63,998 bases of DNA, filler included, from Jimgerdemannia flammicorona (GCA_003990765.1; 3 parts of 3 records of this genome joined end to end with filler, not necessarily neighbours in it); one strand, 5' to 3'; positions 9,701-57,900 are shown, numbered from the whole stretch's first letter. The notes: a model not told the origin generated them from the letters alone. Made by a program: numbers and translations.

Positions 9701-10288
9701 ACCACAGTAACTATTGCCATAGTAGCTGGTCATTGTCTAGTAATTGAGATTCTGATTACAAAGAGTTTTTTGCCACAAACTATCTAACAAAGGTCATGAT
9801 CACAAACCTCACTATAGTTACCAAATTAGTTACTTATACTTAGTCAGAAATCACAGACCAACTTGTATAAATACCCCTCAGTTTCTATCTGAAATAAAGC
9901 AGTTTTAGTTCAGTCTTTTATATAAGAATCAAGTCCCCCCCCCACACACACATTCTCCTGAGTCTTAGTAATAACATCTAAGTGACTCTAGTATTTCTGA
10001 CTAAACTCTAGAAGCATAGCTAACTTCTGTCAAAACTGAGACCAGTATATAAATTCCAAAGACTTAAGTAAACCCAATTGAACCTGAATTCTAAGGTGAA
10101 TTCAGTCTATGCACAGTAAAGAAAAAAATCTTTGAAAGATAAGGTACTGCTACTACAACTACTTTCAAGCAAGCACTTCCTCAAACTGAAGGTTTCTTGG
10201 TACATATTATATACTAAGTCTCTAAGTAATACCTTGTTTCCCTAAGTATCCAAAGGATAAGAGAGGGATAGAAATAAGAGTTATTATA
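3768..10288 (+). repeat. 3' LTR of the chromovirus, split by a LINE (3768-3791 plus ~9555-10288)
   Basis: Follows PPT 3755-3767; TATAAT...ATTATA termini (mutated TGTAAT...ATTACA); colinear with LTR 45437-46229 (-). Confidence 0.85.
3792..9539 (+). mobile_element. Near full-length Tx1/L1-like LINE (family A), decayed: ORF1 ~3962-5790, ORF2 APE-RT ~5818-9460
   Basis: APE motifs LNINSL, GGDFN, RIDW, SDH; RT motifs SPGENGLPWEFW, QQGFVKGRQIRD, LDQEKVYNRV, FADN; A-rich tail; 14/15-bp TSD 3777-3791 vs 9540-9554. Confidence 0.92.
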
Positions 10289-10939: not shown

Positions 10940-13900
10940 CTTTCTCTGGTAACATTCAGGTTATATAACTTTCTAACAATACTTTCAATACTGTTTTCAG
11001 AGAAAAGTTACTAGTATCATAGTAACCAATAAGTGTTCTGAGGTATATACTGGGCAGGATGGCTCTGGTGCATTTAACTGGCAATATGTTGGGAGGGGTC
11101 CTGGCTTGGGGGAAAGCATGAGGGGCCTACTGGTGGGAGGATGTAGTAGGGGAGAGGGAAGTACTGGAGGCCAGGGGACAGAGAGGGTGAGCTTTGCAGA
11201 GAAGGTGAAAGGGGGTCAGCAGGGAGCTGGGCTAGAGAGTTGGCTGAGGGGGAGTAAGATGATGGTGAAGACTACAGAGCAGGGGCTTTGAGGGAGAGAT
11301 CCTCTGGGGGGCCAGAGTAGTGGGGCCAGTAGTATAGTGGCTGAGAAGGTGACTGCCAATGGGAGTATGATGGGCAATCTGGAAAAAAATCCAGATGGGA
11401 CTACTGATGGTGTACTAAGCAGTGGGATGGGCATGAGGCCTAGTGATCTGGCTGATAGTATAATAGGACTGGTGGTGACACTATTACTCAAGAAGTCAAT
11501 CTCAGAATTCACAATCACTCTGTACTTCAGGGGCTTGGCAGTGATGGCAAAAATGGTTCTAGAGCTGATTGTGAAGCAGGTGGAAGGTGTAGCTTCTGTT
11601 AAGTTCTTGAAGGGACTGGAAGGGGTGGAGGTGGGCTTTGAGGAGGCAGGGTTGCTGGAGGAGGCACTGAAGGCTGGGTTGATGGTGGAGGAAGTGTATG
11701 TCTCAATAGTATGGTACTTGAGATGGGACCTCAGAGTGGTGCAGCTCCTAGTGAAGGGGTGCCTATTGTGACCACTATGGAAATGAGGAGGAGAGTTGAG
11801 GAGATTATGGCTGAATATAGGGAGGTGGTCAATATAGGGTTTAGGGTCGAAGAAGAGACCACCTTCTGAACAGAGAATGTTGATGTCCAGATTCAGCTGG
11901 CAGGGAGGGAGACTACTGGCAAGGTGCATAATTGGCCTTTGGTGATGATGTGGAGAGCTTTTGTGTATAAGGTGATAAGAGTAAAGGGGAGTGAGGAGGA
12001 GGAGGAGGACCTGTTGGAGGCACTGGAGGAGCTGAGTGGTGTGGTGGAGTAGAGGGCAAAGTCTTGGAAGGTATATGTAGAGTCAATACACTTGGAGATT
12101 GTTAATGGGAAGTGGGTCCATATTGACAAGGGGCTGTAGAGAGGACCCAAGGTTACAGAAGGCAGAGGGAGTTGCTGGCAAGTCTGGAGGTGAAGCAGAT
12201 AAAGACTGCTGATGGCAGTGAGGATACTGGGGGAGCTTTGGTGAGTGTTTGGGCTAGGGGGCAAGGGGAGAATGTGGAGGTGGGTCTGGGGGGGGCCAGG
12301 AAGACACTGAGTAAGGACCTATATGAGAATGATATGTTTAAAGTCTGGAAGCAATCTCCTATACCTACTTCTCTGATCAGGTGGAGACTGGCTGAAAAGG
12401 GCCAAGTGGCAGAGGATGTGCCCATGTATAGTGCCCAGCAGGTGCACTTTGGGGTTTCTGAGGTGGTGAAAGATGGACAAGTGGTGGTAGTTAGAGAGGA
12501 GAAACTGGTGGATGTCTCAGAGGAGGGGTGGAATGAGGCTACAAGTGTGGGAGAGGATATCTCAATACTGAGTAGTGGACAGCCTGTGACCCCTGGGGGG
12601 AAGGAAGTGGAGAATCTACTGTAGAAATACTGGATAATGAATAACCTTGTAGCAGAGAAGCTGGGAGAAGTGGACCTGAGAGTGATGAGTGATGAGTACT
12701 GGGCAAGAATCTTATATGGTGATAGAGGGGTAGAGGCATTGAGGGCAGAGGTACTGACAGTTTTCCTGGAGGAGGAAGGGTATGAGATAGACAAGGAGAG
12801 GGAGGCTGAGCTGGCAGTTGTTGCTGGTGAGTGGGCCATTTACTGCTGGGAAAAGTGTCATGGTTTGCAGCTCTGGCAGGAGGCCTGTCTGGAGTATTGT
12901 GAGAATTTTGAGGAAAAGGAGGATGGGGAAATAGCTGAGCTACTGGAGGGATTGGAAACCAAGAGAGCTGAGGAAAAGGCAGTGTCTGCTGAATATGACC
13001 TGGACTTGGCAAGAGAGGTGAGGGATATGGAGCAGTAGAGGATGTATTTTCAACTCCATAATATTTCTTATGAATAGTACAACCAATATTTTCTCTCTCA
13101 ATGTGAATGGGTTATGGGGTTTATGTCAGCATCAGAACATTTTTGCTTGGCTGAAGAGACTGGAGGCCAATCTCTTTCTTTTGTAGGATGTCAGGTGTGA
13201 GGATGATTTAGACAGACAGGAGTAGACTAAAGAATAGGGAGGAGAGGTAGTATGGAAAGACAAGGTGGAAATTCTGGTCTGGAGGGGCAGAGGAGAGATA
13301 TAAGAGGTGAGGAGCTGGAAAGACAGGCTGGTTTAGGGAGAGTGGATTTAAGCAGGTTGGGAGCTAGTTACAGTGGGATCTTGCTACTGTCCTGCTATTT
13401 GGGGGAAGCATGTAGACTGGGTGAGAGACTTCCTAGAGAGTAGGGCCTTTACAGAGGCTGGAGTGAATATGCTTGGCAGGGACTTCAATATGGTTCAGGA
13501 TGTATTGGTGGATAGAACTGATGAAGGGCAGGGGGCTGAGGGTCAGAGTGGCAGTCTAGAGGCATAGGAGGAGGTAGAGAGACTAAGTGCACTGGTGGAT
13601 GCTGGCAGGGGACTTTGGGGCATTAGGAGAGTATATATGCACTGGGCCAGGGGTCTGGGGACAAGGATTAACTGGGTTTTGACTGCAGACTACTGGGGAT
13701 TAGATATCTGGAAATCACTGGAGATTGAATGGTGTCCATAGTCAGATCATTGGGGGTTGTTAGGGCATAGACATTTTGGGGGGAGTGGGGATGGGCTTGG
13801 ACATTGATATCTAAATTCCTCTTTGTTGAATAATAAGGAGCTGTGAGATAAGTAGGCTGTAGACATTCAGTAGAGAGTGGTGAGATGGGTACAGGAGGGG

Positions 13901-16283
13901 ACCCCCATGGGTATCAGGGGGAGGTGGCTGAAGGAGGCAGCTAGGGTCCACTGAGGAGAAGCTGATAAGATGGCTGGCAGATAGAGGAGGTGATAGGTGG
14001 CATGGGCTTCTGCTAGGCTGGCTCAGCTTCTGGAGGATAGGGCTGGACTATTGGCCCTAGAGGGGGGGGGAGGACTGGAGATTGCTATGGGTATAGAAGG
14101 AGATAGAGGAGCTACAACTGGTGATAAGAGAGGAGGAGGAGGCATGGGTACAGAGTTTGGCAGCATGATTGTAGTGGCAGGGACTGGAGGAAGGGTAGAG
14201 GCCCTCTAAGTTTCTCATGAGGGCCCTTTGGACAAAAAGAGTTCAGCAGAGATGGGAGGGGGCATTGGATGCTGATGGACATCTGATGCATAGCATACAA
14301 GATATTCTCAAATTGCTAAAGAAGAAGTAGAGTGGTTTGTTGAGTGAGGAGGAGGGGGGGACTGATGAGGCTGCCATTGACCATACTTTGGAGAATTAGC
14401 ACCCACTATAGATAGGAGGACTGGACAGCCTGGTGTTACCAGTACAGGAGGAGGAGATTTGCCAGGTTCTTGCCATAACTTCACTGGACACAGTACTGGG
14501 AGAAGATGGTGGGAATCCTCAGTATATTAGAAGAATTGATGGCAATGTGTGACTTAGTGCTAGAGTTGGGGAGATGGGTGGGTGAGCAGGATCTGGGGCT
14601 GGTGGCACTACTTTATAAGGACAAGAGTAGGAGAGAGGACTGAAGGAACTAGTGGCTGATCATACTGCTGGATATAGACAGGAAGTTGGTTACTAAGGTG
14701 GTAGTGGTGAGGTTGTAGAGGGTGGCCCAGCAGGTGTTGGGGGAGGAGCAGTGGGGCTTTGTAGTTGGCTGGCTCATTAGAGATAGCACAGCTTGGGTGT
14801 ATGATGTTATTGAGGTGGTACAAGCCTGTGGACTAGATGGGTATCTGGTTTTTATGAATCAAGAGAAGGCCTATGACCATATCCAGCAGGTCTGGTTGGT
14901 AAAGGTACTGGATAGGATTGATATCTCTCAGCAGTTCCAAGTAACAATAATCAGTCTACCGGAAGAGAGTCAGGTGGTGCTCATGTGCAATAAGTACCAA
15001 GGGGGGGCTTTTTCTCTAGATAGGGGGATCTCTCAAGGGGACCTGCTGTCTCTCATTTTATATATGCTCTCATTGGAGCCATTGATAGACAGAATCTGAT
15101 GGACAAGTATTTCAATGCTCCTTTTTCTACTACCTTACCAGTCACAATGGTTTGGTAGGCAATCTTCTGAGTCCACTTTCCACAATTATTACCCCCTCTA
15201 TCTCAGGTTGGTTTGCTGTACCTGTTGCAGAGTAGTGGAAGGGAGGCAATGGTGATAAGTTGCCCCTTTATTGATATCAGATCAGTGTCTTCTCCACTTT
15301 TTCACAGTTTCTAGTACCTTCAGCTGCATCTGGAGTGCATTCGTTTTGGTGCAGCACCTTCTTCCTTTTGCCATCACCAACAAGGTACTGTCTTGGTGTA
15401 TCATGGGCTATGTAGGGAGTCAGCCGATCTTGGGTATCAAGTGCTCAGTATAGGTTACCTGTAGGTCCTTGATGTCTGTGGTGGGGCCCTCTGACTTTGA
15501 CAAGCTTTCCAGCAAGTGCAGTTCTGATGTAGGTGACTGCTTTTTGGGTATTGTCAGGATGGAAGAGGAGATGGCCATCACAGATAGGAGGAAGGGTGAT
15601 AATGGTGAACCAGTAGGGTGCCAGGCTGGGGGTGGTCATCAGGGCTGGGGCGGGTACTGCTTCAGTAGAGCCTTTTGATTGATGCAGAGCAGTTAGGTAG
15701 TAGGTGTCACTTTTGGCTTCTTTTGGCAATTTGGCAGGTTGTGCCCCAGTTATTGGAGGGGGTTGGGGGGCCCAAGGCTATCTATTTCAGGTATCTTGGC
15801 TGCACTTAACTAGAACTGGGAGCTGATATAGCAATATGATTGAGGCCTGCAGACTTGAGTAGTAGGGTATTGGGGGTCTCCTCCCACCTCACATATAAGT
15901 CCTTTACTCACCTTGACTGAGAGAACCAGACCCTACCCACTATAATGTACTTTGATGAGGGTTTTTCTTTGTCTATTATTCTCTTTAGGGTGGCAGGGGC
16001 TATTCTATTCAGCTCAGGTGTGGCCTTATACATATGTTGGGGTCTCAGGCATGCACTTTTGGTCATTGGCATATGGCTGGATTCCCCCTGGTGGTAGGGA
16101 GAGCATGGTGTATAGAATGAGGTGTGGGCCAATATAGGCCCTGCTGCACCTGGCATAATTAAGCTGCTGGACAATAGCTAGCCTGGATTAATAGGGGAGC
16201 AGTGTATGATAGGTGGTGGGGGAGGGTTTTGGCCTATATAGTCTAGGTTCTCTTCCAATAAAAATCTGTGGAACATTGAGTCC

Positions 16284-16318
<35 letters not shown>

Positions 16319-17985
16319 CAGAATCTGATAGAAGATAGTAGGGCTCTCAGTATTGGGCATTGGATGGAAAGTTGGAGCCTTTATAGATAACATGGTGGTT
16401 GGCTTGAGATTGATTGCTGATATAGAGGAACTCAAGATAATGGTGGAGTAGTATGAGGTATATTCTGGGGCTAAACTTAATTAGTATAAGTATAAGATGA
16501 TGGTGTTAGATAATGGCCTGGTGGGAGGAGATATCATTGGAATAATTATCTCTGCTAAAGAGGTAGTGTGATACCTAGGTGTTTATCTCTCAGTTTATGG
16601 GTCAGTCTTATCTAAGGCTTAGTGAGAGCAGTAAGTTGTGATCTGGGAGAAGGCCCTGTGGAGTTGGAGTGGCCATCAGATATCTCTAGCTGGGCATGTT
16701 TCTATTTTGAATATCTACTAGCTACTGAAGCTGTAGTATTTGGCTTATCATTTGGACTTTCCAGCCTGGGTGGTGAAGCAACTATTGAAACTAGCCAAGG
16801 ATTGGATCTGGACCAGGAGGAGGAGTCAGATTAGCTGGAAAATCTTATCTCTGCCAGTCACTAGAAGTGGTCTGGGGCTGGTTGACTTTCCAAAGAGGCT
16901 GCACTGCCTGAGAGTATAGTGGTTGAAGAGGGTGGTAGAGCTGAGAAATAGTAGCTGAGTTCTCCTGATGAAGAAGGACTGAGAGATGAGGTCCTCACCA
17001 AGAGGCTCTACAGATGATCTACTGTCCTTGGTCAGGCTTCAGAACAATGGTCTCATGTGGTATAGGGGATTCTGATAGAGAGTTGTAGATGGGGTATATC
17101 ATATTGGAATTCACTGGTAGAGAGATAAAGGGGAGATGCCTTGGGACCCTGTGATGTAGAGATGGGATCATATGCTATTAGTGGTATCTTGCTGCTTGAT
17201 TTCAATATTAGTGATGGGGTAGAGTGTCAGAGGGGGTTAGGACAGGATTTGTGGCCTGATGGATAGCAGCAGGGGAGGAGTGAGATTGGAATAGAGTCTG
17301 GGCCTAGAGTGCTGAGGTCAGATAATAGCTGCTACCAAAGTACTGAGTGGTCTGGTAGTACTTATTGTGGAAGAATGTTATGCTCAACTTTCACTCAGGC
17401 CATCTGGTTGAGGGGGGTAATTTTGACTGTGAGGAGTGCTTTAATGTAGAGCAGGAAGGGGGTTTTGTACAGATACTTGAACATTGGCTGAGAGAGTGTG
17501 AGGTGCTAGATGACTTTTGATTGGCAATAGGGCATCAACTAGGTATTATGTATAGGGAAGTTGATGTGAGAGACTGGTGGGAGAACTTGTGGGATAGATT
17601 GGTGGGGGGGGGTTGGGTCAGAGTGACTCACTTTGGGTTGAATTATAGCTGTATGAGTGGGGTTAGTGGGCCACTGGTTGTATATTTTTAAGGATGAGAG
17701 GAGACTAGATTTGAGGGTATGATTGCTGAGGTGGGAAGGGCTGATGGAGGATATCTTGATGGGCTGATGGCTTGGTTGAGATATGAAGAGTGGTTGGCAG
17801 CATAGTTTGGTTGAGAAAATCTGTTGGCAGAGTGGAAGGAGAGTTAGAATAGTGGGTAAAAGGGTATCTTTCAAGTATAAAGAGATAGAGGGGGGCCCCT
17901 CTAGGGGGATTGGGTAGTGAGAGGAGGTACTGTAACTATATCTATAGACTGGTAATAAATAGTGAAGTCTAAGTGACTTTAAAAA

Positions 17986-18003
<18 letters not shown>
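10940..18003 (+). mobile_element. Near full-length Tx1/L1-like LINE (family B), decayed, interrupted at 15101-16316
   Basis: ORF2 start MNSTTNIFSLNVNGL at 13070; GRDFN, SDH; RT QWGFVVGWLIRD, NQEKAYDHI, GISQGDLLS, FIDN; polyA 17981-18003. Confidence 0.88.
15101..16316 (+). mobile_element. Unidentified 1.2-kb polyA-tailed retroposed element, copy 1
   Basis: AATAAA and ~30-nt polyA; exact 13-bp TSD GACAGAATCTGAT at 15088-15100 and 16317-16329; second copy at 22776-23855. Confidence 0.85.
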
Positions 18004-18025
<22 letters not shown>

Positions 18026-18029
18026 TGTA

Positions 18030-19510
18030 GACTATTTATCATTATCAATAAAAATGTTGAAAGCTTTGCAGGAATTGCCACCCCTTCTCAGCCCTACTAT
18101 GGATAATTTTCTTTTATTTCTTACAGATTGTCCTCTAGATATGAGCCCCATTCACACTATTACAGAATGCATCCACCTACTTAGATGTAACTTTCCTTAT
18201 GTCAGCCATCTTATCTTCATCAATATCATACCCCTTATCATCCAGAAGCACTGCCACTATTGCTATCACCAACTTTGGTCCTTGTATAGCAACATTGAGA
18301 AATTTATCCCAAGTCTCCAGAGATCTATGAAATATATCCACTTTCTTGATATCCTCCTCTGTAAGTTCCTCAAGCACTGTCTGGTACTAGCTATCTGCCA
18401 TTATCACCAGAGGCCCAGGAGTAGCCGGCCTAGGGTTCCTACTTAACTCCTGTAGTAGCTCTTTATCTGCTGAGACATCAGAGGCCATATCTACCAGATC
18501 ATCCTCCTCATTGACCTTCTCCAGCCTCACTACCTCACCTGTCTCCAGATACTTCCAATGAACATTCACTGTCTCTGCCATATAGATGTCCTCCAATTGA
18601 GTCTCCAGTACTACTTTAGTAATATCCTCAAAACCCCCCTCTCTTGCCTTCTCGTTATTAGCCTACTTCCCTTTCACTGATATATGAACTGAATTCTCTA
18701 TATTATCCAGCTGTGAAAAAGACATCTCTGCTATCTCTACCTCTTCTATCTGACTCTTGGCCACCTCTGCCCTCACCATCTCTTTCTCTTTTGAACCCTG
18801 GAGGACTGTCTGTAGATATTTCTAGCTCTATTTCTGCTACCTCTTTTGCCTCCTATCCATTGAAATCCAGATCCAGTCCTTAGCAAACTTCTCTCATCTT
18901 CTCTTCCACTGTATCTTTGTAGCCTCTCTCTCCTCCAGAGTGAATAACAATTCCTCCCCCTCCTGCTCAGATCCCTTTCTCCTCTATATATTACACTCTT
19001 GACTATTAATATAAATTACCTCTAGCCAGTCCCTCCCTAGCCCTGTTGCCTCCTTGCTTTCTAGTCTCACCATTACCTCACAGTTGCCATTCCTCAGCTT
19101 GGTTCCTTCCCAGAATATGAAGCCAAAATCAACCATCTCACTAAAGCCCCCCAGTATCTCTGCTACAATTCCCTTAGTCTCTTACCTACCCAGCATTGGC
19201 AATTCCTCCACTACCAGATACACTATACATGGATGTACATCAGGTATCTCATCATCCCAACCTTGATGTTCTTGACCACCAATCCTTTCTCCAGGGCCTT
19301 CATCATCTCCTCCTTCTCTACAAAGCCAATCTCCACTGCCTTTGCTGATGGAATAAACTTCAGTGACTCTGCACCAGCAACCTCCTCACCCATAAGCTGC
19401 AGAACCTCTGGCAGATATACTCAGCCCCAAGAAGTTTGTCAAAATAGCCCACATTGATACCAACTTGTAAACAAATGGGTGCACTACTAGTTTACCTAAG
19501 TCAGCTGTCA
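18030..19510 (-). mobile_element. LINE family A ORF1 fragment
   Basis: Translations (MLEELTEEDIKKVDIF, EEDDLVDMASDV) match ORF1 at 4350-5830. Confidence 0.85.
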
Positions 19511-21110
19511 TTTTTTTTTTTTTTATAGTCTCTTGGACTTTGCTATTTATTACCAGTCTATTAAATATAAATACAGTACCCCCTCCCACTACCTAATCCC
19601 TCTAGGGGACCCCCCCTCCACACTTTTATACTTGAATACCATCTTATCACTAACTACTACAACTCTCTCCCCACTCTGCCCACAAATATTCTCTATTAAA
19701 TAATGTCAATGACCTCTCTGCAGACTCCATCTCAGCCACCAATCTATCAATATATCTACCATCAACCCTTCTCACCTCAATAGCTGCTCTCCCAAACCCA
19801 AATATCTCTCTTTCTCAAAAACAAACAGCCAGTATCCAGCTAGCCCCCCCATATAGCTAAAACTCAACTAATGGTGAGCCACTCATTTCTAACCCCCCTC
19901 TGATCAATTTATCCTTCAGATCCTCCCAATAATCCCTCTTATCATCCCCTCTCCTCACAACACCCAATTGATTTCTAACTGCTAACCAAAAGTCTCTAAG
20001 TATCTTATACTCTCCCAGTCAATATTCTGGCATCTGTACAAATCTCCCTTCCTTTTCTACATTATAACACTCCTTACAATCAAAGCTTCTCCCCTCTACA
20101 AAGTGGCCTGAATGAAAGTTGAGTATAACATTCCTCTATAGCATATGCTATCAAACCACTCAGTACTTAGGTGGCAGTCATTGCTATATCTCTATACTCT
20201 AGGTCCAAACCCCATTCCAGTCCTACTCCTCTCTAATATCCACCATCTGCCAGCCACTAGGCCATACATTCTGTCCCAACCCTCTCTGGCACTCAACCCT
20301 ATCACCAATATCAAAGTTAATTAGGAGAGTATCTCCCAACAATACTCAATCCTATCTCTATATTACTGGGCCCCAAGGTATCTCTCCTTCAGCCCCCTGT
20401 CAGCAAATACTAATGCAGTGTACCCTATCCACTACTCTCTATCAGAAGCCCTTATACCATATACATCCACTATTCTGAAGCCCAACTAAGGACAGTAGAT
20501 CTCCTGTAGAGCCTCTTAGCAAGAACCTCATCTTCTAGACCTTTTTCATCAGAGGTATCTAGCTATCACCCCTCAGTTCCACAGCTCTCTTCAGCCACAA
20601 GCTCTCAGACAATACAGCCTCTTCAGGAAGTCAACCAGCCTAAGACCTCCTTTAGCCACTGATAATGACAAGAATTCCCAGCTAATCTGACTTCTCCTCC
20701 CAGCCCAGATCTAATCTGTAGCCAGCTTCAATAGCCTCTTTACTACCCAAACTAGAAAGTTCAGATAATATACTAAATACCATAGCTTCAGCAGCCAGGA
20801 GATATTCAAAATTGAAACATGACCCACCAAAGATATGTAGTGGCCTTCCCAACTCTGTATAGCCTCCCCCCAAATAGCCACCCACTATTCTCACTAAGGT
20901 CTTGATAGGACTGACCCATAAATTGAGAGTTAAATACCCAAGTACTATACAGCATCTCCAGTAGGGACAATTGTTCCAATGACATCTCCTTCCACCAGAC
21001 TATTGCTCAATACTATTATTTCACACTTATGCCAGTTGAGTTTAGCTCCAGAGTGTACCTCATACCACTCCACTATTTCCTGGAGTTCCTCAACATCAGT
21101 AATTAATTTC
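19511..21110 (-). mobile_element. LINE family B 3' part with polyA tail
   Basis: PolyT 19511-19524 followed by the reverse complement of the family 3' end; similar to 16400-17980. Confidence 0.8.
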
Positions 21111-21320
21111 AGGAGGGGGATCGCTGGGAGGACTTCAAATCTCGGCTTGTGGGTGGGGTTGGGGACAGTTGGCTCACTGTAGGATGGGTGTTAGCAGTGT
21201 GGGTGGGGTTGGCGGGACATTGGCTATTCATATTTGAGGAGGGGCAGTGGTTGGGGTTGCGTGAGAAGGTTTTAAGGTGGGAGGAGCTGGTGGGGGATCT
21301 GCTAACCGGGTGGTGGGTGG
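21111..21320 (+). mobile_element. Less-mutated LINE family B 3' fragment at a contig end
   Basis: Similar to 50515-50720 but retains CpG; abuts the gap. Confidence 0.65.
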
Positions 21321-21420
21321 NNNNNNNNNNNNNNNNNNNNNNNNNNNNNNNNNNNNNNNNNNNNTTAATTAATTAANNNNNNNNNNNNNNNNNNNNNNNN
21401 NNNNNNNNNNNNNNNNNNNN
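21321..21420. other. Artificial scaffold gap (44 N + TTAATTAATTAA + 44 N)
   Basis: Six-frame stop linker within exactly 100 nt. Confidence 0.97.
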
Positions 21421-42724: not shown

Positions 42725-42824
42725 NNNNNNNNNNNNNNNNNNNNNNNNNNNNNNNNNNNNNNNNNNNNTTAATTAATTAANNNNNNNNNNNNNNNNNNNN
42801 NNNNNNNNNNNNNNNNNNNNNNNN
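42725..42824. other. Artificial scaffold gap (44 N + TTAATTAATTAA + 44 N)
   Basis: Same linker as 21321. Confidence 0.97.
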
Positions 42825-45420
42825 AAGTCAGTTTCTCCCCATCCTTCACAAGGAGGGTTGTCTTGTTTGGGTTCCTCAGTCTGTTGAGCTTGGTGCTTCT
42901 TGGATTGAATTTTGAAAACTTTGGAGAGGCATGCATGGCATTCACCAACATGTTCCATGCAGTACATTTGAATAGAATGAGGGCATCATCCACATGGTGC
43001 ATAACCATCTGCAATTCTCTTATACCAGTTTTCATCATCTTCCTTCATGGTAGTGACCTTTTGACTGGGAGGTTTGTTGATAGATCCAAACCCTTTCTTG
43101 CCATGGTCTGTCTGGGAGAGTTCAGGGACTTCTTCAATGGTGAGATCTTGATGGATTTCTTCAATGATTGCTTGAGCAATTCTTTGGCCTACTTTGACTT
43201 CAAATGATGTGTCTCCAAAATTTTGCAAGATGACACAGATTTCATCAGTAAATCCTTGGTCAACTACTCCTCCTCCTAGCCCAATGTTGAACTCTTTGGC
43301 TAGGCTGCTTCGCTCAGCAAGGCGGATGTATGTACCTCTGGGGGCTTGTATTGTAATTCCTATTCATGCTGTAGCATTGGTACTTGGTGGGATGGTGAGG
43401 TCTTGGCTGCTGTAGAGGTCATATCCAGCATCAGTTGAGTGGGCCTTAGTGGGGATGGTAGCCTTGTACCATATCTTCTGTACTTTGATGACATTCTTGG
43501 GGTTCTTCTTTCCTGGGCCTTCTCTAATAATAGTAATGTTCTGGTTACTAGGTTCGCCTGCTCTATTCTTCTTCTCAGGGCATCTGAATGAGATGTGTCC
43601 TGCCTTCTTACAGATGAAGCACAATCCCTTTTCATGGAGCTGCCTCTTTTCATCCTCAGTGGGAGGTCTGGATCCCCTGGGGTTTCGCTGGTTCCTTTGA
43701 TCATTCTGTTGATCATATCTTTGATCATTTCTCCTGGTGGGGTTTCTCCTATCTTGGTTATTCTTCTTGTGTTCTCGGTTTTATGGAGCTTGTGCAGCAA
43801 GGATTTCGTGGGCTCTTCTTTGTACTTGGGCAAAGCACCACAAGTAGTGGGGACATCCTTGCAGAAGAACTTGTTCCTTGATCTTCTGGGTGAGCCAGTC
43901 TGGTAGGGCTGCAAAGAGATAGTTGGCTCTGGTATCATTGATGGCCAAATTGTTTTCCTGATAGGTAAGTCCCACAGTTTTGAGATAGGCATCCATTCTG
44001 GTGGCAAAGGTCTCTAGATCCTCTTTGCCATTCTTGTGGAACTTCATCTGGAATAGTTTGTTCCATGTTTCTTATATGTAGGCCACATTTCGGAATTTGG
44101 TCAATAGCAAGGCCTTGAGTCCTGGGCCTGCTTCGTAGTCATCCCAACCTGGTCTATTGTTGTCAGGTACTTGTCCATTGACTTGAGGGCAGGCTTCCCA
44201 GGTTACTGGGTATTATTCCAAGGTTCGCCAGAATTCGGCTGCTGTTCTAGTGAAGAATATAGCTACTGTTTCTACTTGTGCTGCTGATGTGGCAAATAGC
44301 TGTTGAAGGGTGCTATTCTGGTTGTTGGTGAGCATTCCTATAGGTACTCGATTGTCATTCCATTGGTTTGCTTGGTAGCCTATGTCAACTGCATTGATGA
44401 AATTTTTAATGTCACTGTTTTTTCCACTAAATGTTGGGATTCACAAAGTCTTGGTTGGTTTGTTCTGTTCAGCAATCTGTCCTACTATCCCTGCTAGTGC
44501 TGCTAGCTAAGTGGTCAGTGCTGCAATGTTGACATCTACCATTGTATTGACTATTGGTGGTGGGCCTATTGGGGTAGATTCTCCTGAAGATTGTTCTGCT
44601 TGGTGGGGTTGTGGTGCTGTATGACTTGGAGTTACTTGGTTCCCGGATATTAAGTCAAAGAGTCCTGTGAGAGAGGGTAAACCAAACCTCTGTATAGGTG
44701 GCTGAGTTGGTTCTGGGGTCTGATCTTCTTGACCTGTGGTTCCTTGGTAAATTCCTAGGCCTGCTATTCCTTATTGGCTATCATCAGACTGGTAACCTAT
44801 AGAGTCTTTGTCTAACTCCCTTCCTTGATGAGATAGTGCATCCTCATACTGACTAGGTCCTTCAAAGAGGATATCAGTCTCTGGCTGGGTTGATGGGCCT
44901 ACTTCTTGTTCAGCAGTAGGGGATAGATGGCCTGCTTGCTCATTCTCGTACCTAGTTATGGCAGAGATGTAGTATACAACTAGCCTATAGTAGAGAGAGG
45001 TCTTGGTTAGTGTATGATGATACCTGTCAGAGGCAATCCGCTCGGCAGCTGCTTCTCTTGCAGCAGGGGGTGTAATATAATCTAAAAAATCCTAGGTGGC
45101 TACAGCAGTAGATTCTGGGGTCCTAGTAGTTCCAATGTGTTCTTGGAGGAGTTCGTAGAACCTACAGCGGCTAACAATATTCCTAAGTCCTGGGTGGTAT
45201 ATGTATCCTAAAGACCTGGTATAGATCCTTGTAAGCCTGGTCAATTACAAGCTGGTGGATTCTTGGGTCTGTGGTTTCCTGGTACCACCTGGTCCTAATG
45301 GCAAGGGCTTCTCTGGCTCTGGTTTGAGGATCCACAGTTATTTCTGGGGATTACTCCTGTCCAAGGTTGGTCTTGTTCCAACTTCAGGAGTGTGTTCTTT
45401 GGTGCCTTCTTGGCTGGTAA
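42825..45420 (-). pseudogene. LTR retrotransposon gag (long N-extension) - CCHC knuckle - dUTPase - Cys/His motif, cut by gap
   Basis: One frame 44047-42826 with few stops: CFICKKAGHISFRC, then AGYDL, RSS, GVVDQGFTDEI, RIAQ, GKKGFGS (all five dUTPase motifs). Confidence 0.9.
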
Positions 45421-45421
45421 T

Positions 45422-45433
45422 CTGCTGCTACCA
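45422..45433 (-). promoter_or_regulatory. Primer binding site TGGTAGCAGCAG (initiator-Met-tRNA-like)
   Basis: 3 nt after the LTR end; TGG-TAGC pattern. Confidence 0.65.
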
Positions 45434-45436
45434 AGT

Positions 45437-46229
45437 TGTAATAACTCTCACTTCTACCCCTCTCTTATCCTTAGGATAATTAGGGAAGTGGACTATTACT
45501 TAGGGACTTAGTACACAATATATACCAAGAAGCCTTCAGTTTGAGGAAGCGCTTGCTTAAAGTAGTTGTAGTGGCAGTGTCTTATCTTTCAAAGGTCTTT
45601 CTCTGGGTTGCCTTCTGTTTCAAAGATCTTTCTCTTGTGCCCTATTTCGAGGGTCTTGTTCTTTAGTGTACACAGACTGAATTCGCCTTAGAATTCAGGT
45701 TCAATGGGTTTACTTAAGTCTTTGGGGATTTATATACTGGTCTCAGTTCTGGCAGAAGTTAGTTAGGCTTCTGGAGTTTAGTCAGAAACACTAGAGTCAC
45801 TTAGATATCATTAGTAAGACTCAGGGGAATGTGTGTGTGTGGGGGGACTTGATTCTTGTATCAAGGACTGAACTAAAACTGCTTTATTTCGGATGGAAAC
45901 TGGGGGGTATTTATACAAGTTGGTCCGCGATTTCTGATTAAGTATGAGTGACTAATTTGGTAACTATAATGAGGTTTGTGATCACGATCTTTGTCAGGTG
46001 GTTTTTGGTAAAGAATATCTTTATGATCAGGACCTCAATTACTAAGCAATGATCAGCAGCTGTGGCAACTATTGCTGCAGTGCCAGTTGTCAGAGATAAG
46101 CTGGATATCGTTTTCCACATCATTTCACATCATTCGTTATTCATATGCCGCACTCGATCATATGATGATGTTATCGCCGGGTCACATGATCATTCGTCTC
46201 ATTGCATCCCATCTGTTCGCTCTATTACA
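45437..46229 (-). repeat. 5' LTR (793 bp)
   Basis: TGTAAT...ATTACA termini, TATA and AATAAA, followed by PBS; homologous to 3768-3791/9555-10288. Confidence 0.9.
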
Positions 46230-47350
46230 GGCAATCAGCAGTTCCTCCTCCTCCTGTTCAGAGCCTGTCCTTCACCACACTTTGCACTCCTGTCCTTTGA
46301 CTTGAATCACCTCTGGCCAGTCCCTCCCTAGCCCTGTAGCCTCTTTATCTTCCAGCTTCACTATTATCTTGCAGTTGTTATTTCTCAGCTTAGTCCCCTC
46401 CCAGAACATAAACCCAAAGTTAACCATCTCACCAAAGCCCCCCAGTGCCTCTGCTACAACCCCTTTAGTCTTCTGTCTTTCCAATGTCAGCAGCCCCTCA
46501 ATCACCAGGCATATGGCATGCAGGTCCCACCTCAGACATCTCACCATACCAACCTTGATATTTTTGATGACCAGCCCTTTCTTCAAGACTTTCATCATAT
46601 CCTCCTCCTCTCTCTACTACCTCTGCTGACAGGATAAACTTCAGCAACTCTGCCCCAGCAACCTCCTCTCCAACTAGCCACAAGACCTCCCTAGCAGACA
46701 TTCCCAGCCTTAAGAAATTTGCTGAGATAGCCCATGTTGACACCAACTTGTAAAAGAAAGAGCACACCACCAGTTCACTAGAGCCTGCCACTACGTGACC
46801 TTCCTCTTATTCTTAGATACCTCAGCAGTCACCCCAGCCACAGGCCCAGCCCCAGAAATACCAGTCCCAGCTACACCACTTCCAGACCCCTGGCCCCTGA
46901 CAGGCACCTGACCAGTTACCTGACCAGTCACCTGGCTGGTCACCTGACTCCTACCCCTGTCTATACTACATCCCCCCTACCCTACCTCCATGGGCCTAGT
47001 AGCTGCCCTCCTGCCCCCATCACTGTGCACCAGCTCTCAATACTAGCCTGCCTTCCATGACCACCTACTCCTCTTGCTCCAGCACCAGCCCCAGCTACTG
47101 CTGCAAAACTCTTGGGAAGGCCCAGGCCAGGCCTCCTTCTCTCTAAGTGCTCAGAGCTTGATGAACCCTGGGTCACCATTCAATGAAAACTTCATGGAAT
47201 TTGATGAAACTTATTATAGACTATTACTAGACTCCTACTGCACCTTGTATACCAGTATAGACGAAGTGAAAACTTGAAAATGTGTTGCTTTTCATGAAAA
47301 GATGTCCATGTGGCTTAGCTCGCTCTAAACGGTTTGAGCAAAAGAAGTCC
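46230..47350 (-). mobile_element. LINE family A 5' end and ORF1 start, interrupted by the LTR element
   Basis: Matches 3792-4925 including the GACTTCTTTTGCTCAAACC 5' terminus. Confidence 0.9.
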
Positions 47351-47354
47351 TTCC

Positions 47355-50300
47355 TCTAATAAAGTGGACTAGAGAATGGGGAGGAGCTACTACTTGATTG
47401 ACAAAGTAGTGATTCTGATAAGGAAGGGTAGAGGAGATTTGGGCAGAATCAAGAGCTGGAGTGAACATTTGGTCTGGGGAGAATGGCATTGATCTGGGTG
47501 AGAATCAGTGAGGATTAGCTCCTACTACTGTCCTGCAGTTAGGGGTGAGCAGATTGAGTGGATTATAGATCTATTGGAGGAGGATATTCTCTTGGAGAAA
47601 GATATCAATGTTCTGAGAGGTGACTTTAATATGGTGTGGAATCCATAGATAGATAGAACTGATAGAGAGAGGAGTATAGATGGGAGGAGTGGTGGTCTGG
47701 ATAAGTGAGAGGAGGTGGAGAACCTTAGCTTCTTAGGAGATATGGATAGAACATAGTGGGGTGACAGAAGAGTCTATATACACTGGGTAAATAGACTGAG
47801 TACAAGGATTGACTAGATTCTGATGGCTGAATGTTGGGGTACTGATGTTTGGAGGACTCTAGAGGTGGAGTGGTGCCCATGGTCTGATCACTGGGGGCTA
47901 TTGGGGAAGGAGCAGTTTGGGGGAAGTAGAGATAGACTCAGATATTGGTGCCTTAACTCCTCCCTGATGACTGAGAAGGGGTTGTGAGACCCATGAGTGG
48001 AGGATATCTAAGTGAAGATTACTAATGATATGTACATGAGGGTTTATCTGTGAGTATCTATTAGATGAGACTGAGAAGGAGACTATAAGAGTTTATTGGG
48101 AAGAAGCTGGTAGGGAGGCTGGGAGGCAGAGAAGGAAGTAAGTAAGGTATACTTCTAATAGGCTGATTAAATTGTAGATAAAATGGGCTAATTTGCTTTC
48201 TTCTGATAAGATGGAGGATTGGAGGTTGAAGCAGGCAAAATTAGAGGTAGTAGAGCTGCAACAGGTATTGAGAAAGGAGGAGGAGATTTGTATGAAAGGA
48301 ATAGTTGCCAGACTATGGTGGCAGGGGCTTGAGGAAGGAGAGTGGCCTACTAGGTACTTGTCTAGGCTTCTTTGAGCTAGGAAGATACAACATTGATGAG
48401 ATGGAGTCTTGGATGCCAAAGAGGATATGGTGCATGGTATACAATAGATCTTGAGAGTACTGAAGGAGAGATGGCAGGGTCTGTAGAGTGAGAAGGAAGG
48501 GGGTGCAGATGAAGAGGTGATTTGAGACATACTGGAGGAGTGGAAACTACTGCAAGTAGAGAGACTTAGCGACTTGATCATACCAGTCCAAGAGGAGGAG
48601 ATCTAGAGAGTCCTTGCAGCAACTAAGCTTAGGACAGTATTAGGAGAGGATAGGTTACCTTGGAACTTCTGGAAGAAGATAGTGAGGGTCCCTAGAGTGT
48701 TAAGAGAGAGACTGTACTCTGTGACCATGTTCTTCTAAATGGCAAGTGGGTTGGGGAGCAGGACTTGGAGCTGGTGGCCTTATTGTACAAAGACAAGGAG
48801 AGGCAGGAGGACTGGAATAACTGGAGGCCAATCATACTTCTGGATATGGATAGGAAGATAGTGACTAAGGTGATTGGTGCAAGACTTCAGAAGGTTGCCC
48901 AACAGGTGCTGGGTGAGGAGCAGCAGGGTTTTGTAGGAGGCAGGCTTATCAGGAATGAGACTACCTGGGTGTATGACATTATTGAAGGAGCTCAGGCTTA
49001 TGGACTAGATGGTAGACTGGTCTTTTTGGACCAGGAGAAGACCTATGACCATGTTCAGTAGGTATGGCTGGGCAATAGGCTGGATAGAATTGGGGTTCCC
49101 CTATATTTTGGGGCTTCTATATTGAATCTATTAGAGAGCAGTTGAGTAGTGCTGATGTGTAATAGTCACCAGGAGTTGGCATTTCCCTTGGAAAGAGGAG
49201 TTCCTCAGAGAGACCCACTGTTTTCTATCCTTTATATTCTTTTATTAGAATCTTTAATAGATAGGATGTAACAGAAGATGGCAGAGCTCTCTATATATAA
49301 TGTGGTGTGAAAGGTGGGGGTCTTTGCAGATAATATGATAGTTGGACCTAGATCAGTAGCAGATATTGAGGTACTTAAGAAGACAGTGGAATAGTATAAG
49401 GTATACTCTGGGGTGAAACTCAACTGGTATAAGTGTGAGATAATTGTATTGGGGAATGGGTTAGTGAGAGGAGACATCATTGGAACAATTGTCCCAACAG
49501 AAGAGGTAGTGTGGTATCTGGGTATATTCCTTTCTGTATATAGATCTGTCTTATCATGAGTGTGGTGAGAGAGGAGGGTGGCCATTTGGGAGGAGGCTCT
49601 TAGAGGTTGAGGGGGTCACTATATCTCTCTGGTAGAGTGGGTGTTGATTCTGAATATCTACTGGTTTCCCAAGCTATAGTATGTGACCTATCACTTAGAC
49701 TTCCCAGCTTGGGTGATAAGAGGCTGACGAAACTGGCTAGAGATTGAATTTGAGCAGAGAGGAGATCCCAGATCAGTTGGAATACTCTTGTATTGCCAGT
49801 GGTTAGGGGAGGACTAGGCCTTGTAGATTTCTCTAAGCAGCTGTATTGTCTATGAGCTTGGTGGTTGAAAAGGACTATTGAACTACAGAGAGGAGATTGG
49901 GTACTGCTGATGCAGAAGGTATGGGAGATGAGATTCTCCCCTCAGAGATCATCAGGAGATTTGCTCTCTCTAGTGGATCTGAATGAAAGCTGATAGCTAT
50001 GATAAGAGCTTCTGGTAGGGGGTGGTGGATAGAGTGCACTGGATAGGCCTATGCTGGCAAGGCAATAAGGAGGAGGTACTGTGGGTTCCAGCTATGTGGA
50101 GATGAGACAGACTGCTTCTGGGGAGTCTTCTGCTTGCTGAGTTTGATATTGATGAGAGAGTGGAGTGTCAGCAGAGACTTGGCCAGAATTTTTAGCCAAG
50201 TAGTTGGCAGGCAGTAAGGATTGGTGAGAAGTAGGACTGAGCAAGAGTCTGGTCATGGTGTGCTGAAGTGTAGAGGTAGCTTTCTTCCAAGTTCTGAGTA

Positions 50301-50943
50301 GTATAGTAGTGGATGCTATGGAGGAATATTATGTTGAATTTCCATACTGGGCATCTGGTAGATGGTGGCTGATTAGATTGTAAGAAGTGTTATAATATAG
50401 AGTAGGTAGGGTGATTTGTACAAATATCAGAATATTGGTTGGGAGAGTGTGAGGTTCTAGGGGACTTTTGAATAGTGGTAGAGACTCAGCTGGATGTGGC
50501 AAAGAGACCAGATGGAGAGAGAGGTTGCTGGAAGGATTTGAAATCTTGACTAGTGAGAGGTATCAGTAATAGTTAACTCACTATAGGGTGGGTTTTAGTA
50601 TTATAGATAGAGTTGGCTGGACATTAGCTCTTTGTTTTTGAGGAAGAGTGATAGATGGATATACAGAAGAAGTTGTTAAGGTGGGATGAGTTGTTGGGGG
50701 ATCTGCTGACTGGATGGTAGATTGGTTAGGATCTCTAGAGTAGGTATCATTGCTGTCTGGTGAAAGGGATCTGTAAACATAGTAGTGGGTGGGTGGAGAT
50801 AGTGTTTGACAAAGTGGTCTTTCATTGAGAGAAAGTGGGGAGAGGGGGGGAAGGGACCCTCTAGGGAGATTAGATAGGAGTGGGCACTATGTATTAGATA
50901 GAGGATAGACTAGTATATTAATAAAGAAAGGAGTCTGAGTGAC

Positions 50944-50982
<39 letters not shown>
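47355..50982 (+). mobile_element. 5'-truncated LINE family B (APE-RT), decayed
   Basis: GDFN, SDH, EEGEWPTRY, NWRPIILLDMDRK, LDQEKTYDHV, FADN; polyA 50947-50982. Confidence 0.9.
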
Positions 50983-50983
<1 letters not shown>

Positions 50984-52297
50984 ATTCAGTAATAATAGTG
51001 GTCCTTGTTTCTATTTTATAGCAATAGAGGATATAATGATAAGAATCACTAATACCCAGATTGAGACTAGGAGTACTTCTTATATGGGTCTTTATAGCTT
51101 TTCTGATGTAATTCCTATACTTTGAGGTTTGGTAAGCAATAGACATTTTTATTTATTTGTAGTAAGTCTTTTAAACTATTTCTGTGAGCCTTGTTTGGAT
51201 TACTACTACTGTAGTAGTTTCTTGATCCTTTTATTATATTCCTTAAGATATCTGTTTTATAGTTATAATAACTCATAGTTAATCATCATTATTCATCTTA
51301 TAGCCTGAGTGAGTTATACCATATAATCTTCTTATACTCTGATCTGGTGGCTTGTAAGGAAAGACTGTCTTCTGTGAAGATATCATCATTCTGAGATCAC
51401 TGTTATAATATTTATTATATTATTTAAAGCTTTATTATAGTTTTTAGATTTTGGTATATAATATATTTTAATTTATATATTATATATTCTTAATTAATAA
51501 TTATTTTTAAGAAATATTTTAAAATTATTTTTATAAATAAATATAGTAAAAGATATCATTTAAAAAAGAATATTAGAATAATATGTATTTTTCTTATATA
51601 ATTTATAATAAGTATCATGTTCTTACAAACTATTATCTATTATTCAATAATTCTAAAAGATTGTACAGCTACTTGTCAACAGTCAGCATATATCCAAGAC
51701 AGAGACAGAGCTTAATGGAGAGTGATTCAATGTCCTCCTGCTGCTACAATTATTTATTCCAACTGATGGAAGGAAAATTTGATGACAGGAAGAATGACGG
51801 ATAATGTGGGTATTTTTCCCTTACGTGATATGTGAAGTTTGTCTACGTTACTTTTTACGACGGCAATGCAACTTCATGAACATGTTTTGCAACAATAGTA
51901 ATTTCAGAGATCCACACCTCTAGCATATTATGAATATAACTCAGTTTGAGAGAGCTCTGAAACTAGCTCTGATGATAGATATGGGCCTTCTCTTTTTATT
52001 CACACCAATCAAATATTGGAATACCGTTTTATTTATCATTTTTGTTATTTCAAACGGGATACAAGGTAAAGTAATGCAAGAGGATAGTAGATTTAAAATA
52101 TACAATAGAGCTATATTCGCAAGAGCCCCATTGGAAGTCGTGAGGGGGGGGGATCATGCCATTGGCGAAAGGATATATATACATATATACAATCGTTGCA
52201 CTCTCCAAGACGTGCTATCTTGCCAGAATACTGAGTAATCGACATCGACCAAATCAGCACGCTACCTTCCAATTATTGATCCGTATGGCCTTTAACT

Positions 52298-54934: not shown

Positions 54935-57900
54935 TTACTTGTGCTTGGTAACGAACGTGCGATTGAGCAGTTGGAGGATCTTGGACACATTCAGCTGTAC
55001 ATACTCAAGATCAAGGAGTTGCACGTTATCTTGTTGCTATGTGCATTTTGTTTGGAATAAGTAATCGTGGCCATGTTCATATATAACATTGTCCCAGTAA
55101 TCATGCCCATTTACCTTTTCTAGTAGATCATCTAGTTTGAGATCCATCTCAAGGATTGCCTTGTCGCGGCCTTGTGGAAAGGAAAGCTTCGGTTAACAAA
55201 CAAATAAAAGGCACTCTTCTACAAGTATAGCCCACTCCTTTAAACAACGAAGATATAATGTTCCGAACGAGAATGAGATAATTGCAAGTGCCGCATACCC
55301 TTGTAGTGCAGAGCGATGATAAACGTTCCGGGAATCGGCGATGTAATTGCGAAAAAGATATTAGCTCGCCTATGAGACAAAGGGAGGGAGGGAGGAAGAA
55401 GGCAGAATGTTGAGATAATGTGACATGCATGTAAACATAGTAGATGTACTTATGTACTATCGGAGATAAAATGTGAACTTGGAGGAATATGGAGCTCACC
55501 GATTATCCGGCACATTGCTTTCAACGATAATCCCTTCCTTCTCCAATTGTGCGTGTGTGAACTTGTATGGTCCCAACACTTGCGGCTTCGGCTGCTTTTT
55601 TACTTTCCCGTCAACCTCAACCCCGATGCCCACCGAATTCTTTGTCGCCTTCTCGCCGCCACCAGACTGAATACGAACATTTTGCAGATATGCCTTGTAA
55701 CTCTCCAACTGACTCCTTAGATAGTTGTTGTGATCAAGAATGGTTTGATAAACGCTTTCAAGGCTCTCAATTTCCTGGTTAACCTTTTCACGAAGGTTGC
55801 CGAGATGCGTGAGTTCTTGCGCGATCTCTTCGCCCAATAAAGCGTATCCATCTCGATGATCCACAACAACTGCCTCCTCTAGCTCTCGCATCATTTCTTT
55901 TACTTTTATGCCTTTACGAACAAGCTGAGCATCCTTCGTCGTCGCTGCGGTTTCCGCAATATAATCGAGTTGTAAGGGACGTTGGCTACCTAGATGAGGG
56001 AGCGAGCGGATCAACTGCACAAAGATCGCCTTGGTCTCCATATAAAGAATATCATTCTGAGTAATGTTGTTTTCCGACATCAGGGCTGTCGTTAAATCTT
56101 GAATAAGCAAGAAGGGCATTGGAATAAAGCTGTCAGAATTCGCATGTGATCTAATCATATCCAACCTTGCCACACACACATATATAGTGGATTCAACAAT
56201 ACGGAAATGGCACAAGAGTAATCACCTTGAATAGGAATTTCCCAACGACTAAACAACGGCAACACAAGTGTCTTATTGTCCTTCCTCGGAACTTGCGCAG
56301 GGGCCGGCCCCGCTTCGGTAACGAGAATGCGCAAATGATCCTTATCCTTTGGAGCGAGGATATCGATATGCTGAACCAGTAGAGCGTGGCTGTTGTAGAT
56401 CTCGTTCAGCGTGATATTGAGAATAATGTCTTTCTTTGAGAGCGCCATGTACTGATCCATCTCCAGAGATTCGTAGAAATCGCCGACCTCACAGAGCTCA
56501 TTCAAGAATTTGTTCATTCGCGTCTTATTGTTCTCGACGAAGGGATTTGTAGGGAGCATGTAGGCTTCCTTAGCATATGAGGGTTTGTTTGCAAGATTCT
56601 GGAGCATTTTGGCGATCTGGATACGCGTTACAAACATGTTTGATTAAACATGCACATATGTTTCCTCAAACACTTTGAAATAAAAAAATACTGCCTATGA
56701 ATGGAATCGAGATGATTGCTTACCAACGTCAAAGTCCTCCTTGGATGCTTACTGGGGATCCCATCAACGAGCATATACGCTTGGGGGGTCACGATTGCGG
56801 GATTGACGAATCGCAGAAAAAAAAACCCACCAATCAAAGAGCAAATCGCGAAATCCGAAGCTTCTGAGTACTTGCGCTTGGTCAACGATCGAATCTGCTT
56901 GCAGATCCAGCGAATACCATACGGAACTGAATCCAGGGAATCCAGGATCGTTTCGAGAAATGAATTGGCTACATCAATCAGCATCGCAAGCCGTGGGGCA
57001 ATTATTGCCTGAACATCTGGATTCTGTGCCGCTACATCAGGCGTCACGCTGCGTGGAAGATCTTCAGGGAGTTCGTTCGTATCTTGCTCAATCTGGATAA
57101 TCATTTGCTCATAAACCTGTGATTGCGCCAAATGAATGTACAGGGTTGGAACTACGTGAGTGAGAACTGGCCGAGTAGGCAAGATTGTAACCGTGCGCTT
57201 AATGAAAAACACAAACCTTCAGCGGATTGATTTCTAAATTGAGATCCTTATGCTCGATCAAGTTGTTGATTCGTTCGGCAAGCACAGACTTCAGGTAGGA
57301 TTGACCCGGTCCACGACGTGTATAGGTCGTCATCATGCGAGAAACGGGTGTATTAGCACGGAGTAGCGAACCGAATTCGGTCGAGGTTTCAAATTGAGCG
57401 GCGAGAACGTTCTACATGAGGGAGAGAGAACAAGATTGCATTAATGCCACGAAAGGTAATCCAATGATTAGGAGACATACAAAATTCCAAAACATAATCG
57501 CAATTCCGTTGATGGTCTATGGCCTCACCTGGAACATTGTCAACAACAAATGCTCTTCTCGTGATTCGTACTGATTTCCGTAGAGTGTGAACATGACAGT
57601 CTGCAGCAATGTATCGATTTCCGCCAAGCTCACAAGACGGCATAGCGAGGCGATGTGACGTGGCTCAGATTGCAGCAAGAAGAAGAGATTGCCGTACTGC
57701 TGCATCTTGCGGTCATCAGGATAATAATCGTCTGAAGCTTCCTCTTGCTCTTCAAGGTGGCTGGCAACTTCGTTTTGCTGATTTTTCGATAGAAAGGCCA
57801 AGGATAGGATGCAAAATATGTGAGGGTAAACTCGGCGAAAAAAAAGAATTGCTATCACTTCTGCCAAAAGGTCCTGTCCTCATGAATGTAATGCTACCAT

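Follow-up and report, generated by a model that had tools for sequence, protein, structure and literature searches.

The stretch of DNA analysed here (the window, 63,998 nt from Jimgerdemannia flammicorona) raises the question of whether a dUTPase lying directly behind a nucleocapsid zinc knuckle in one part of it, and a chromodomain lying behind an integrase in another, come from a single family of LTR retrotransposon, and if so where the dUTPase and its companions originated. The window is made of three contigs joined by N spacers, with positions 1–21320 belonging to contig C1482 and positions 42825 onward to contig C1509; the spacer at 42725–42824 is not element sequence. The 5′ half of the element lies on C1509 and the 3′ half on C1482, so that the two are not physically linked and represent separate insertions.

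The 5′ half occupies 42825–46229 on the minus strand and is an inactivated copy of a high-copy fungal retrotransposon. It opens with a 793-nt LTR (45437–46229) bounded by TG...CA with 7-nt inverted termini; in full-length copies the LTRs measure 730–827 nt and have the same ends. Three nucleotides behind it is a primer-binding site (PBS; 45422–45433) that complements the 3′ end of the genome's initiator-type tRNA-Met at 11 of 12 positions. What the preliminary description had called a long gag resolves into a leader frame of ~268 codons without an in-frame AUG (44543–45350) and, in the same frame, the gag capsid region (43622–44542), whose first Met is at 44542 and which is 43% identical to that of family C, described below. 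A single CCHC zinc knuckle follows (43580–43621; PF00098, E 0.001, 19.5 bits, slightly below the 20.8 cut-off) and, 29 codons behind it, the dUTPase domain (43073–43492), which PF00692 matches in two pieces at E 2.7e-5 and 2.1e-18. Next come a Cys/His module without a Pfam family (42893–43027; core C-P-H-x11/12-C-x2-C), which recurs in families C and D as well as in six proteins from databases, and the start of an acidic linker to the protease (42825–42892), which is cut by the contig end ~40 codons short of the protease active site. The frame is interrupted by twelve stops from 45439 to 42826, including one within the dUTPase (43364–43366), and a 4-nt insertion near 45203 disrupts the leader relative to all ten full-length copies. 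Despite these lesions, the earlier reading of PBS, gag, knuckle and dUTPase in one frame with no intervening protease is borne out, and all five dUTPase motifs that it named are present. The gag of family A returns no Pfam match at cut-off, here or elsewhere; its ESM Atlas leads, at 0.89–0.91, are retrotransposon gag clusters from fungi and are to be taken as leads only. Together with intron-bearing genes and a pectinesterase, they agree with a fungal host.

The 3′ half, on the plus strand, is 5′-truncated and starts at 1423, inside the integrase core, rather than at 1360 as first proposed. It retains the 3′ part of the integrase core with the SH3/GPY-F region (1423–2066), a chromodomain (2067–2273) that is 72% identical to a copy matching PF00385 at E 2e-11, and a sense-strand ORF3 remnant (2835–3756) whose stop abuts the polypurine tract (PPT; 3755–3767). 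The 3′ LTR is split into its first 27 nt (3768–3794) and the remainder (9547–10288) by a LINE-like insertion with an A-rich tail and an ~11-nt duplicated site (3795–9546), which is not part of the family and whose class was read from the sequence rather than from a library scan. The LTR at 45437–46229 matches that at 9550–10286 at 76.6% (BLAST), which upholds the assignment of both to one family, and a global alignment of the same two LTRs gives 615 matches, 92 transitions, 13 transversions and 92 gap columns. Against full-length copies, the 5′ half is 89–94% identical with 0.002–0.012 transversions per site and the 3′ half 81–82% identical with 0.024–0.031; because of this difference the 3′ insertion appears to be of the same family only in a wide sense, either older or of another subfamily. 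The idea that the element could be reconstructed from these two halves is accordingly right about the layout, which is real in full-length copies, but not about the halves, which are different insertions on different contigs.

Copies elsewhere in the genome connect the two. Searches with the dUTPase stretch and with the integrase–chromodomain stretch gave 930 and 978 first-look candidates, respectively, with 40 scored in each case, and these figures are not copy numbers. When 20 loci were fetched from the dUTPase side, the chromodomain lay on the same strand 3.43–3.47 kb downstream of the dUTPase in 16 and at 4.67 kb in one more, the remaining three being interrupted or ending early; from the integrase side, the two domains are linked in 9 of 15 loci. 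Ten copies have two LTRs and measure 8.6–9.2 kb, and eight of these carry exact 5-nt target duplications. Their LTR pairs are 89.5–93.6% identical, with 50–70 transitions versus 0–14 transversions, and the ratio of observed to expected CpG is 0.13 in the internal part of the element versus ~1.0 where the window is rich in genes. No RNA dataset was listed as containing this internal part, a result that has no bearing on expression. These copies, which we refer to as family A, have been inactivated by C-to-T decay that is strongest at CpG. Nested repeat clusters surround them.

Family A is a chromodomain-bearing Ty3/Gypsy element of ~9.1 kb that reached high copy number and is now decayed. Its order is LTR, tRNA-iMet PBS, AUG-less leader, gag, CCHC knuckle, dUTPase, Cys/His module, protease (PR), reverse transcriptase (RT), RNase H (RH), integrase (INT), SH3 and chromodomain, followed by ORF3, PPT and LTR. 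The leader through the chromodomain form one frame of ~2000 codons, as no stop is common to three quarters of the copies over ~6 kb (75% of 10 copies, positions 887–6876 of reference copy L107, bar one frameshift in L107). One 759-aa stop-free stretch matches the Pfam families zf-CCHC, dUTPase, aspartyl protease and RVT_1 in that order, further copies match RNase H, Integrase_H2C2, rve, SH3_Tf2-1 and Chromo, and a 387-aa stop-free stretch holds PF24626 (E 5e-18), PF00385 (E 2e-11) and rve together. The family is identified as a chromovirus by its chromodomain, which follows the SH3/GPY-F module in the same frame at the C-terminal end of the integrase, and as Ty3/Gypsy by the PR-RT-RH-INT order obtained across copies, the TG...CA LTRs, the tRNA PBS, the PPT and the short target duplication. 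The best solved-structure match of the RT is Ty3 RT at E 2e-63, with HIV RT at ~1e-13. Priming on tRNA-iMet is indicated by the match of the PBS to the genome's tRNA-Met, whose 3′ end it complements at 12 of 12 positions in copies L026 and L030, and which we take to carry initiator features. As in the 3′ half, the ORF3 stop abuts the PPT. The preliminary description had inferred this layout, with a dUTPase and a chromodomain in one element and PR, RT and RH unseen, and the full-length copies supply every part of it. The finding that it named as refuting this, a dUTPase and a chromodomain that never share an element, is contradicted by the copies.

Selection was assessed from transversions only, with one natural reference copy set against 46 loci. 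The dUTPase gives an omega of 0.22 (21 N, 20 S; p 5e-6; off-frame 1.4–1.5), as low as any core domain; gag gives 0.32, RT 0.50, the leader 0.46 (p 5e-4) and ORF3 0.40 (p 8e-4; off-frame 0.78 and 2.11), with off-frame controls across the tested regions ranging from 0.78 to 2.44. The dUTPase was thus under purifying selection while family A replicated. Of 36 copies in which the dUTPase domain is complete, 10 are free of stops within it, and all five motifs, including the motif-3 aspartate, are present in the commonest forms. Motif 3 reads Gly-Phe in family A versus Asp-Tyr in the cellular enzymes compared, a change that could reduce activity.

The genome holds three further abundant families with a dUTPase. 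Family C has the whole layout of A with longer LTRs. Family B shows CCHC-dUTPase-PR and, over ~6 kb, lacks both the Cys/His module and ORF3; most of its loci in the comparison did not extend far enough to reveal RH, INT or a chromodomain. Family D, which is without a chromodomain, reads gag-PR-Cys/His-dUTPase-RT-INT in 6/6 loci and carries an ORF3 homologue in all six, placed inside 1.1–1.8-kb terminal repeats in the five loci that display both repeats at this size. The order of modules is therefore mirrored, with dUTPase-Cys/His before PR in A and PR-Cys/His-dUTPase-RT in D. Median identities of A to C and of A to D, respectively, are 43% and none for gag, 33% and 24% for PR, 53% and 37% for RT, 43% and none for RH, 49% and 28% for INT, and 45% and none for the chromodomain. 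The accessory modules give 41% and 40% for the dUTPase, 45% (over two thirds of the module) and 52% for Cys/His, and none and 37% for ORF3, the last at E 2e-41 in 6/6 D copies. By these values the element core goes with A–C, and the accessory modules lean towards A–D. On balance we favor, by a narrow preference, a history in which ORF3 and probably the Cys/His module were exchanged by recombination between the lineage of A and the distant, non-chromodomain Gypsy lineage of D. In the Cys/His tree (61 columns) A+C is rejected (p-AU 0.028), and A+D is recovered at 78/85 only. The case for exchange rests on distances rather than on a clean conflict of topologies, because the RT tree, which took in this genome's families and two database rows, leaves A+D unrejected (p-AU 0.06) and supports A+C at only 36/3.

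A distinctly less probable account, which nevertheless deserves weight, needs no exchange at all: the common ancestor of the chromoviral families A and C and the non-chromoviral family D would already have had the dUTPase, Cys/His module and ORF3, with later rearrangement in place, loss in B and rapid divergence in C. The unrejected A+D grouping in RT agrees with it, as do the distances among element dUTPases, which are all about equal (34–45%). Additionally, the 3′ ORF of family C is faintly similar to ORF3 (hhalign probability 7.5%, E 0.005), a similarity that would be consistent with an ORF inherited from a distant common ancestor and rapidly diverging in C. However, ORF3 is as similar between A and D as RT is (37%) and more similar than INT (28%) or PR (24%), which is unusual for an accessory gene; the Cys/His tree rejects the A+C grouping, and for gag, RH and chromodomain no match between D and A is seen.

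Returning to exchange as the preferred history, the modules that would have moved can be described further. We consider the Cys/His module most likely to be a small zinc finger accompanying the dUTPase. A knuckle-dUTPase-Cys/His profile run against 1.84 billion representatives yields, among its best 150 matches, one near-identical and six divergent proteins that cover the module (P0008, P0020, P0023, P0039, P0041 and P0066), and three of the divergent proteins continue into a protease. The module has no Pfam match under E 0.08 (3 rows), and within family A its 11 N and 0 S transversions give no sign of selection, which counts against the exchange. A metagenome contig bearing the Cys/His pattern (one of 14 matches) is without element genes and was rejected as a chance match.

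A genome search with ORF3 gave 6165 candidates, and five database relatives are 35–65% identical to it. Pfam returned nothing under E 0.05 (8 rows), the best PDB match reached only E 0.39, the first Atlas matches, at 0.90 with low feature counts, provided no lead, and none of 95 pattern matches in viral contigs was confirmed. In the 600 nt ahead of ORF3 the frames differ between copies at A-runs, and introns were considered there. Our best guess, a doubtful one, is that ORF3 might be a counter-silencing or chromatin factor, because its location would allow production from a 3′ or LTR-driven RNA and because two lineages exposed to heavy CpG decay have retained it. Neither ORF3 nor the Cys/His module has a Pfam entry, and both recur as protein families in other datasets.

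The leader shares 27% identity with its counterpart in family C (E 9e-9, 6/6 C copies). There is no in-frame AUG in the leader of any of the seven readable copies (of 10) of family A, nor near the leader start in five copies of family C, and seven of nine copies have a GTG as codon 6 or codon 14. A near-cognate start or a spliced exon would likely explain the AUG-less leader. A still more speculative proposal, improbable as it stands, would combine these features: distant Gypsy lineages may trade an accessory kit, consisting of a dUTPase with a Cys/His zinc module in mirrored order and an ORF3 of 210–270 residues, at the 3′ end or within the LTR, that would act against a host cytosine-methylation/deamination defence, while the Gag of A and C would gain a 270-residue N-terminal extension through a non-AUG start or a spliced exon. 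If true, this would amount to a retrovirus-like accessory gene set in a fungal retrotransposon. Four abundant families in one genome, which place the dUTPase in two positions and differ in whether they have the Cys/His module and ORF3, provide a test bed for following the origin and exchange of such modules by trees.

As for the origin of the dUTPase itself, a PF00692 search of the genome gave 8265 candidates, of which 150 were scored, and a quick tree of 74 of 157 rows and a careful tree of 26 rows were used. Most of the 139-column tree has no resolution, and the alternatives A+B+C (p-AU 0.107), A+C (0.234) and A+D+P0002 (0.32) are all unrejected. In the comparison with the host enzyme that had been proposed, an exclusive clade of family A and host is rejected (p-AU 0.03). 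The family A dUTPase appears to be an old element-borne lineage rather than one newly taken from the gene of this host.

The position of the dUTPase, immediately after the knuckle and ahead of the protease, could suggest that it derives from the betaretroviral NC-dUTPase or has a particular origin in common with it, its layout being homologous to that of MMTV and MPMV; motif 2 also reads RSS, as in several element-borne matches. We regard this as very unlikely. The best solved-structure matches are cellular-type enzymes (E 4e-18 to 1e-16), with lentiviral entries lower; 1duc scores 2e-10, and 2d4l is absent among the 41 structure matches. The RT is of the Ty3 type by a wide difference in E value (2e-63 versus ~1e-13 for HIV). 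In betaretroviruses the NC-dUTPase is joined by ribosomal frameshift, whereas gag and dUTPase of family A share a frame. The position of the dUTPase, moreover, varies freely within this genome and among the fungal elements described in the available portion of PMC2864245. The preliminary description's comparison with betaretroviruses is therefore sound as to position, and nothing beyond position ties the two.

Less likely still is that the dUTPase is a recent, functionless passenger from host mRNA, a reading that the data largely refute. The host gene, which has three introns and lies on C33350, was indeed retrocopied at least once (L057, 97% identical to the host exons). That retrocopy is only 41% identical to the family A domain, the A+host clade is rejected, the omega of 0.22 speaks against a passenger, and all four families, as well as database proteins, retain the dUTPase in frame. 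Finally, a chimera of two unrelated elements sharing only an LTR, which the halves on different contigs and their 76.6% LTR likeness might have suggested, is refuted by the linkage of dUTPase and chromodomain in 17/20 and 9/15 loci and by the exact target duplications of 8/10 full-length copies.

With these alternatives weighed, we put the probability at roughly 0.8 that family A is, as a whole, a decayed dUTPase-carrying chromovirus with an element-borne dUTPase lineage, the exchange of modules being favored only by the narrow preference given above. Chromodomains target chromoviruses to heterochromatin, and that of family A may likewise steer insertion there, with which the nested repeat clusters around its copies are consistent. 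We hypothesize that the polyprotein would assemble the particle, bringing the enzyme into it, and that the protease would then free a trimeric dUTPase, probably still bearing the knuckle or the Cys/His module. The freed enzyme would hydrolyse dUTP at the site of reverse transcription and so keep uracil out of the cDNA, and the attached knuckle or Cys/His module could hold it on nucleic acid. This predicted role is drawn by analogy with retroviral dUTPases (PMC4531489, available portion), where the betaretroviral NC-dUTPase offers a working model in which the enzyme stays bound to the nucleic acid during its copying.

How family A compares with known systems was assessed from the available portions of the papers, with the exception of PMC3248453, whose main text makes no mention of dUTP. 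In the literature searched, the coverage of which stops short of subscription papers, Repbase and GyDB, we found no paper on such a Cys/His module, ORF3 family or AUG-less leader. Like family A, MMTV and MPMV have the dUTPase directly behind the nucleocapsid; as described in PMC4531489, they join a Gag-derived NC to a Pro-derived dUTPase, whereas family A has one frame and one knuckle. Family A further differs from betaretroviruses in its Ty3-type RT, its chromodomain and its lack of env, and its ORF3 has no Pfam or PDB match. The bdelloid rotifer elements Juno, Vesta and TelKA also carry a dUTPase in Pol, with an extra Zn knuckle behind it in Juno, and in rotifers varied ORF3s are common to unrelated retroelement lineages; unlike in family A, the dUTPase lies between PR and RT, there is no chromodomain, and the ORF3s are known enzymes or env (PMC5408684, as excerpted). 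PosPlaTy3-5, the Phanerochaete dUTPase Metaviridae and Tuber Tmt1 resemble family A in having a dUTPase inside a fungal Gypsy polyprotein, but their PR-dUTPase-RT order is that of family D, while the dUTPase of family A precedes the protease (PMC2864245, PMC5408684, as excerpted). An association of such domains has also been noted in Entomophthora muscae, where dUTPase, protease and CCHC domains are enriched together (PMC11105155, as excerpted), and the excerpted text of PMC2774666 compares the betaretroviral dUTPase with that of fungal chromoviruses.

The closest counterpart is found in Novikova et al. 2010 (PMC2864245), the available text of which places the dUTPase at the amino-terminus of Pol in PosPlaTy3-3, at the carboxyl end in PosPlaTy3-4 and between PR and RT in PosPlaTy3-5, cites the Phanerochaete and Tuber elements and considers the domain to have been gained independently. 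A supplement caption in it names dUTPase domains of chromodomain-containing Gypsy elements, and the legend of Figure 3 refers to additional ORFs whose function is not known. PosPlaTy3-3, from Postia placenta, is like family A a fungal Gypsy element with the dUTPase behind gag and before the protease; compared by description only, it differs in that the available text is silent on a Cys/His module, an AUG-less leader and an ORF3 family (PMC2864245). The preliminary description gave a match of the layout to a described family as grounds for refutation, and PosPlaTy3-3 largely provides such a match, its dUTPase position being in print; the Cys/His module and ORF3 we did not find there. Family A shares the PosPlaTy3-3 layout type, with no claim to family membership, for which that paper asks 90–100% amino-acid identity in RT and integrase. 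Placement of a dUTPase behind gag is already known in fungal chromoviruses and is ordinary, and its position here adds one host to a pattern published in 2008–2010, while the question of role and origin left in the available text of PMC2864245 gains direct evidence of purifying selection on the dUTPase.

The ORF3 of family A, the chromodomain-bearing Gypsy element, has a homologue of 260–290 codons in family D, a non-chromodomain Gypsy (loci L133–L138), where it lies inside the LTR. Family D is very abundant, with 2808 first-look candidates in the genome search, and its PBS differs from that of family A. Family C, the sister chromovirus of family A, has its own 3' ORF that extends into the 3' LTR (L120, 8000–9000; L105, 2644–3105), and this ORF bears only a faint likeness to the ORF3 of families A and D. 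Some family A copies are arranged in tandem with one LTR in common, and others are nested in or beside further copies (L050, L117, L025 and L027).

LINE-like repeats occupy positions 3795–9546, 11000–21300 and 46230–51000 of the window; they are nearly devoid of CpG and show extreme strand asymmetry, with a GC skew of about ±0.5. The 3' LTR of the second insertion is interrupted by one of these repeats, and the family A 5' LTR ending at 46229 is itself inserted into another. The N spacers at 21321–21420 and 42725–42824, each with a central word giving a stop in all frames, join three separate contigs of similar length, and links across them are non-physical. Short tandem and simple repeats lie close to contig ends (21421–21877, 38637–38876 and 63622–63998). 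Host genes include pectinesterase pieces within a gene-rich stretch (28727–29872, plus strand; PF01095, E = 7e-18 and 6e-17) and, on the minus strand, IQGAP-like RasGAP and RasGAP_C exons (55496–57215) and an HLH-domain gene (34966–35628).

The host dUTPase gene (L140, contig C33350) contains three introns, and a 97% identical, intronless retrocopy (L057, contig C6287) carries substitutions in motif 2. Among database proteins, the dUTPase matches P0098, P0074 and P0002 include element proteins laid out CCHC-dUTPase-PR or PR-dUTPase-RT, as well as a badnavirus polyprotein whose domain has RSS at motif 2, the same as in the element.
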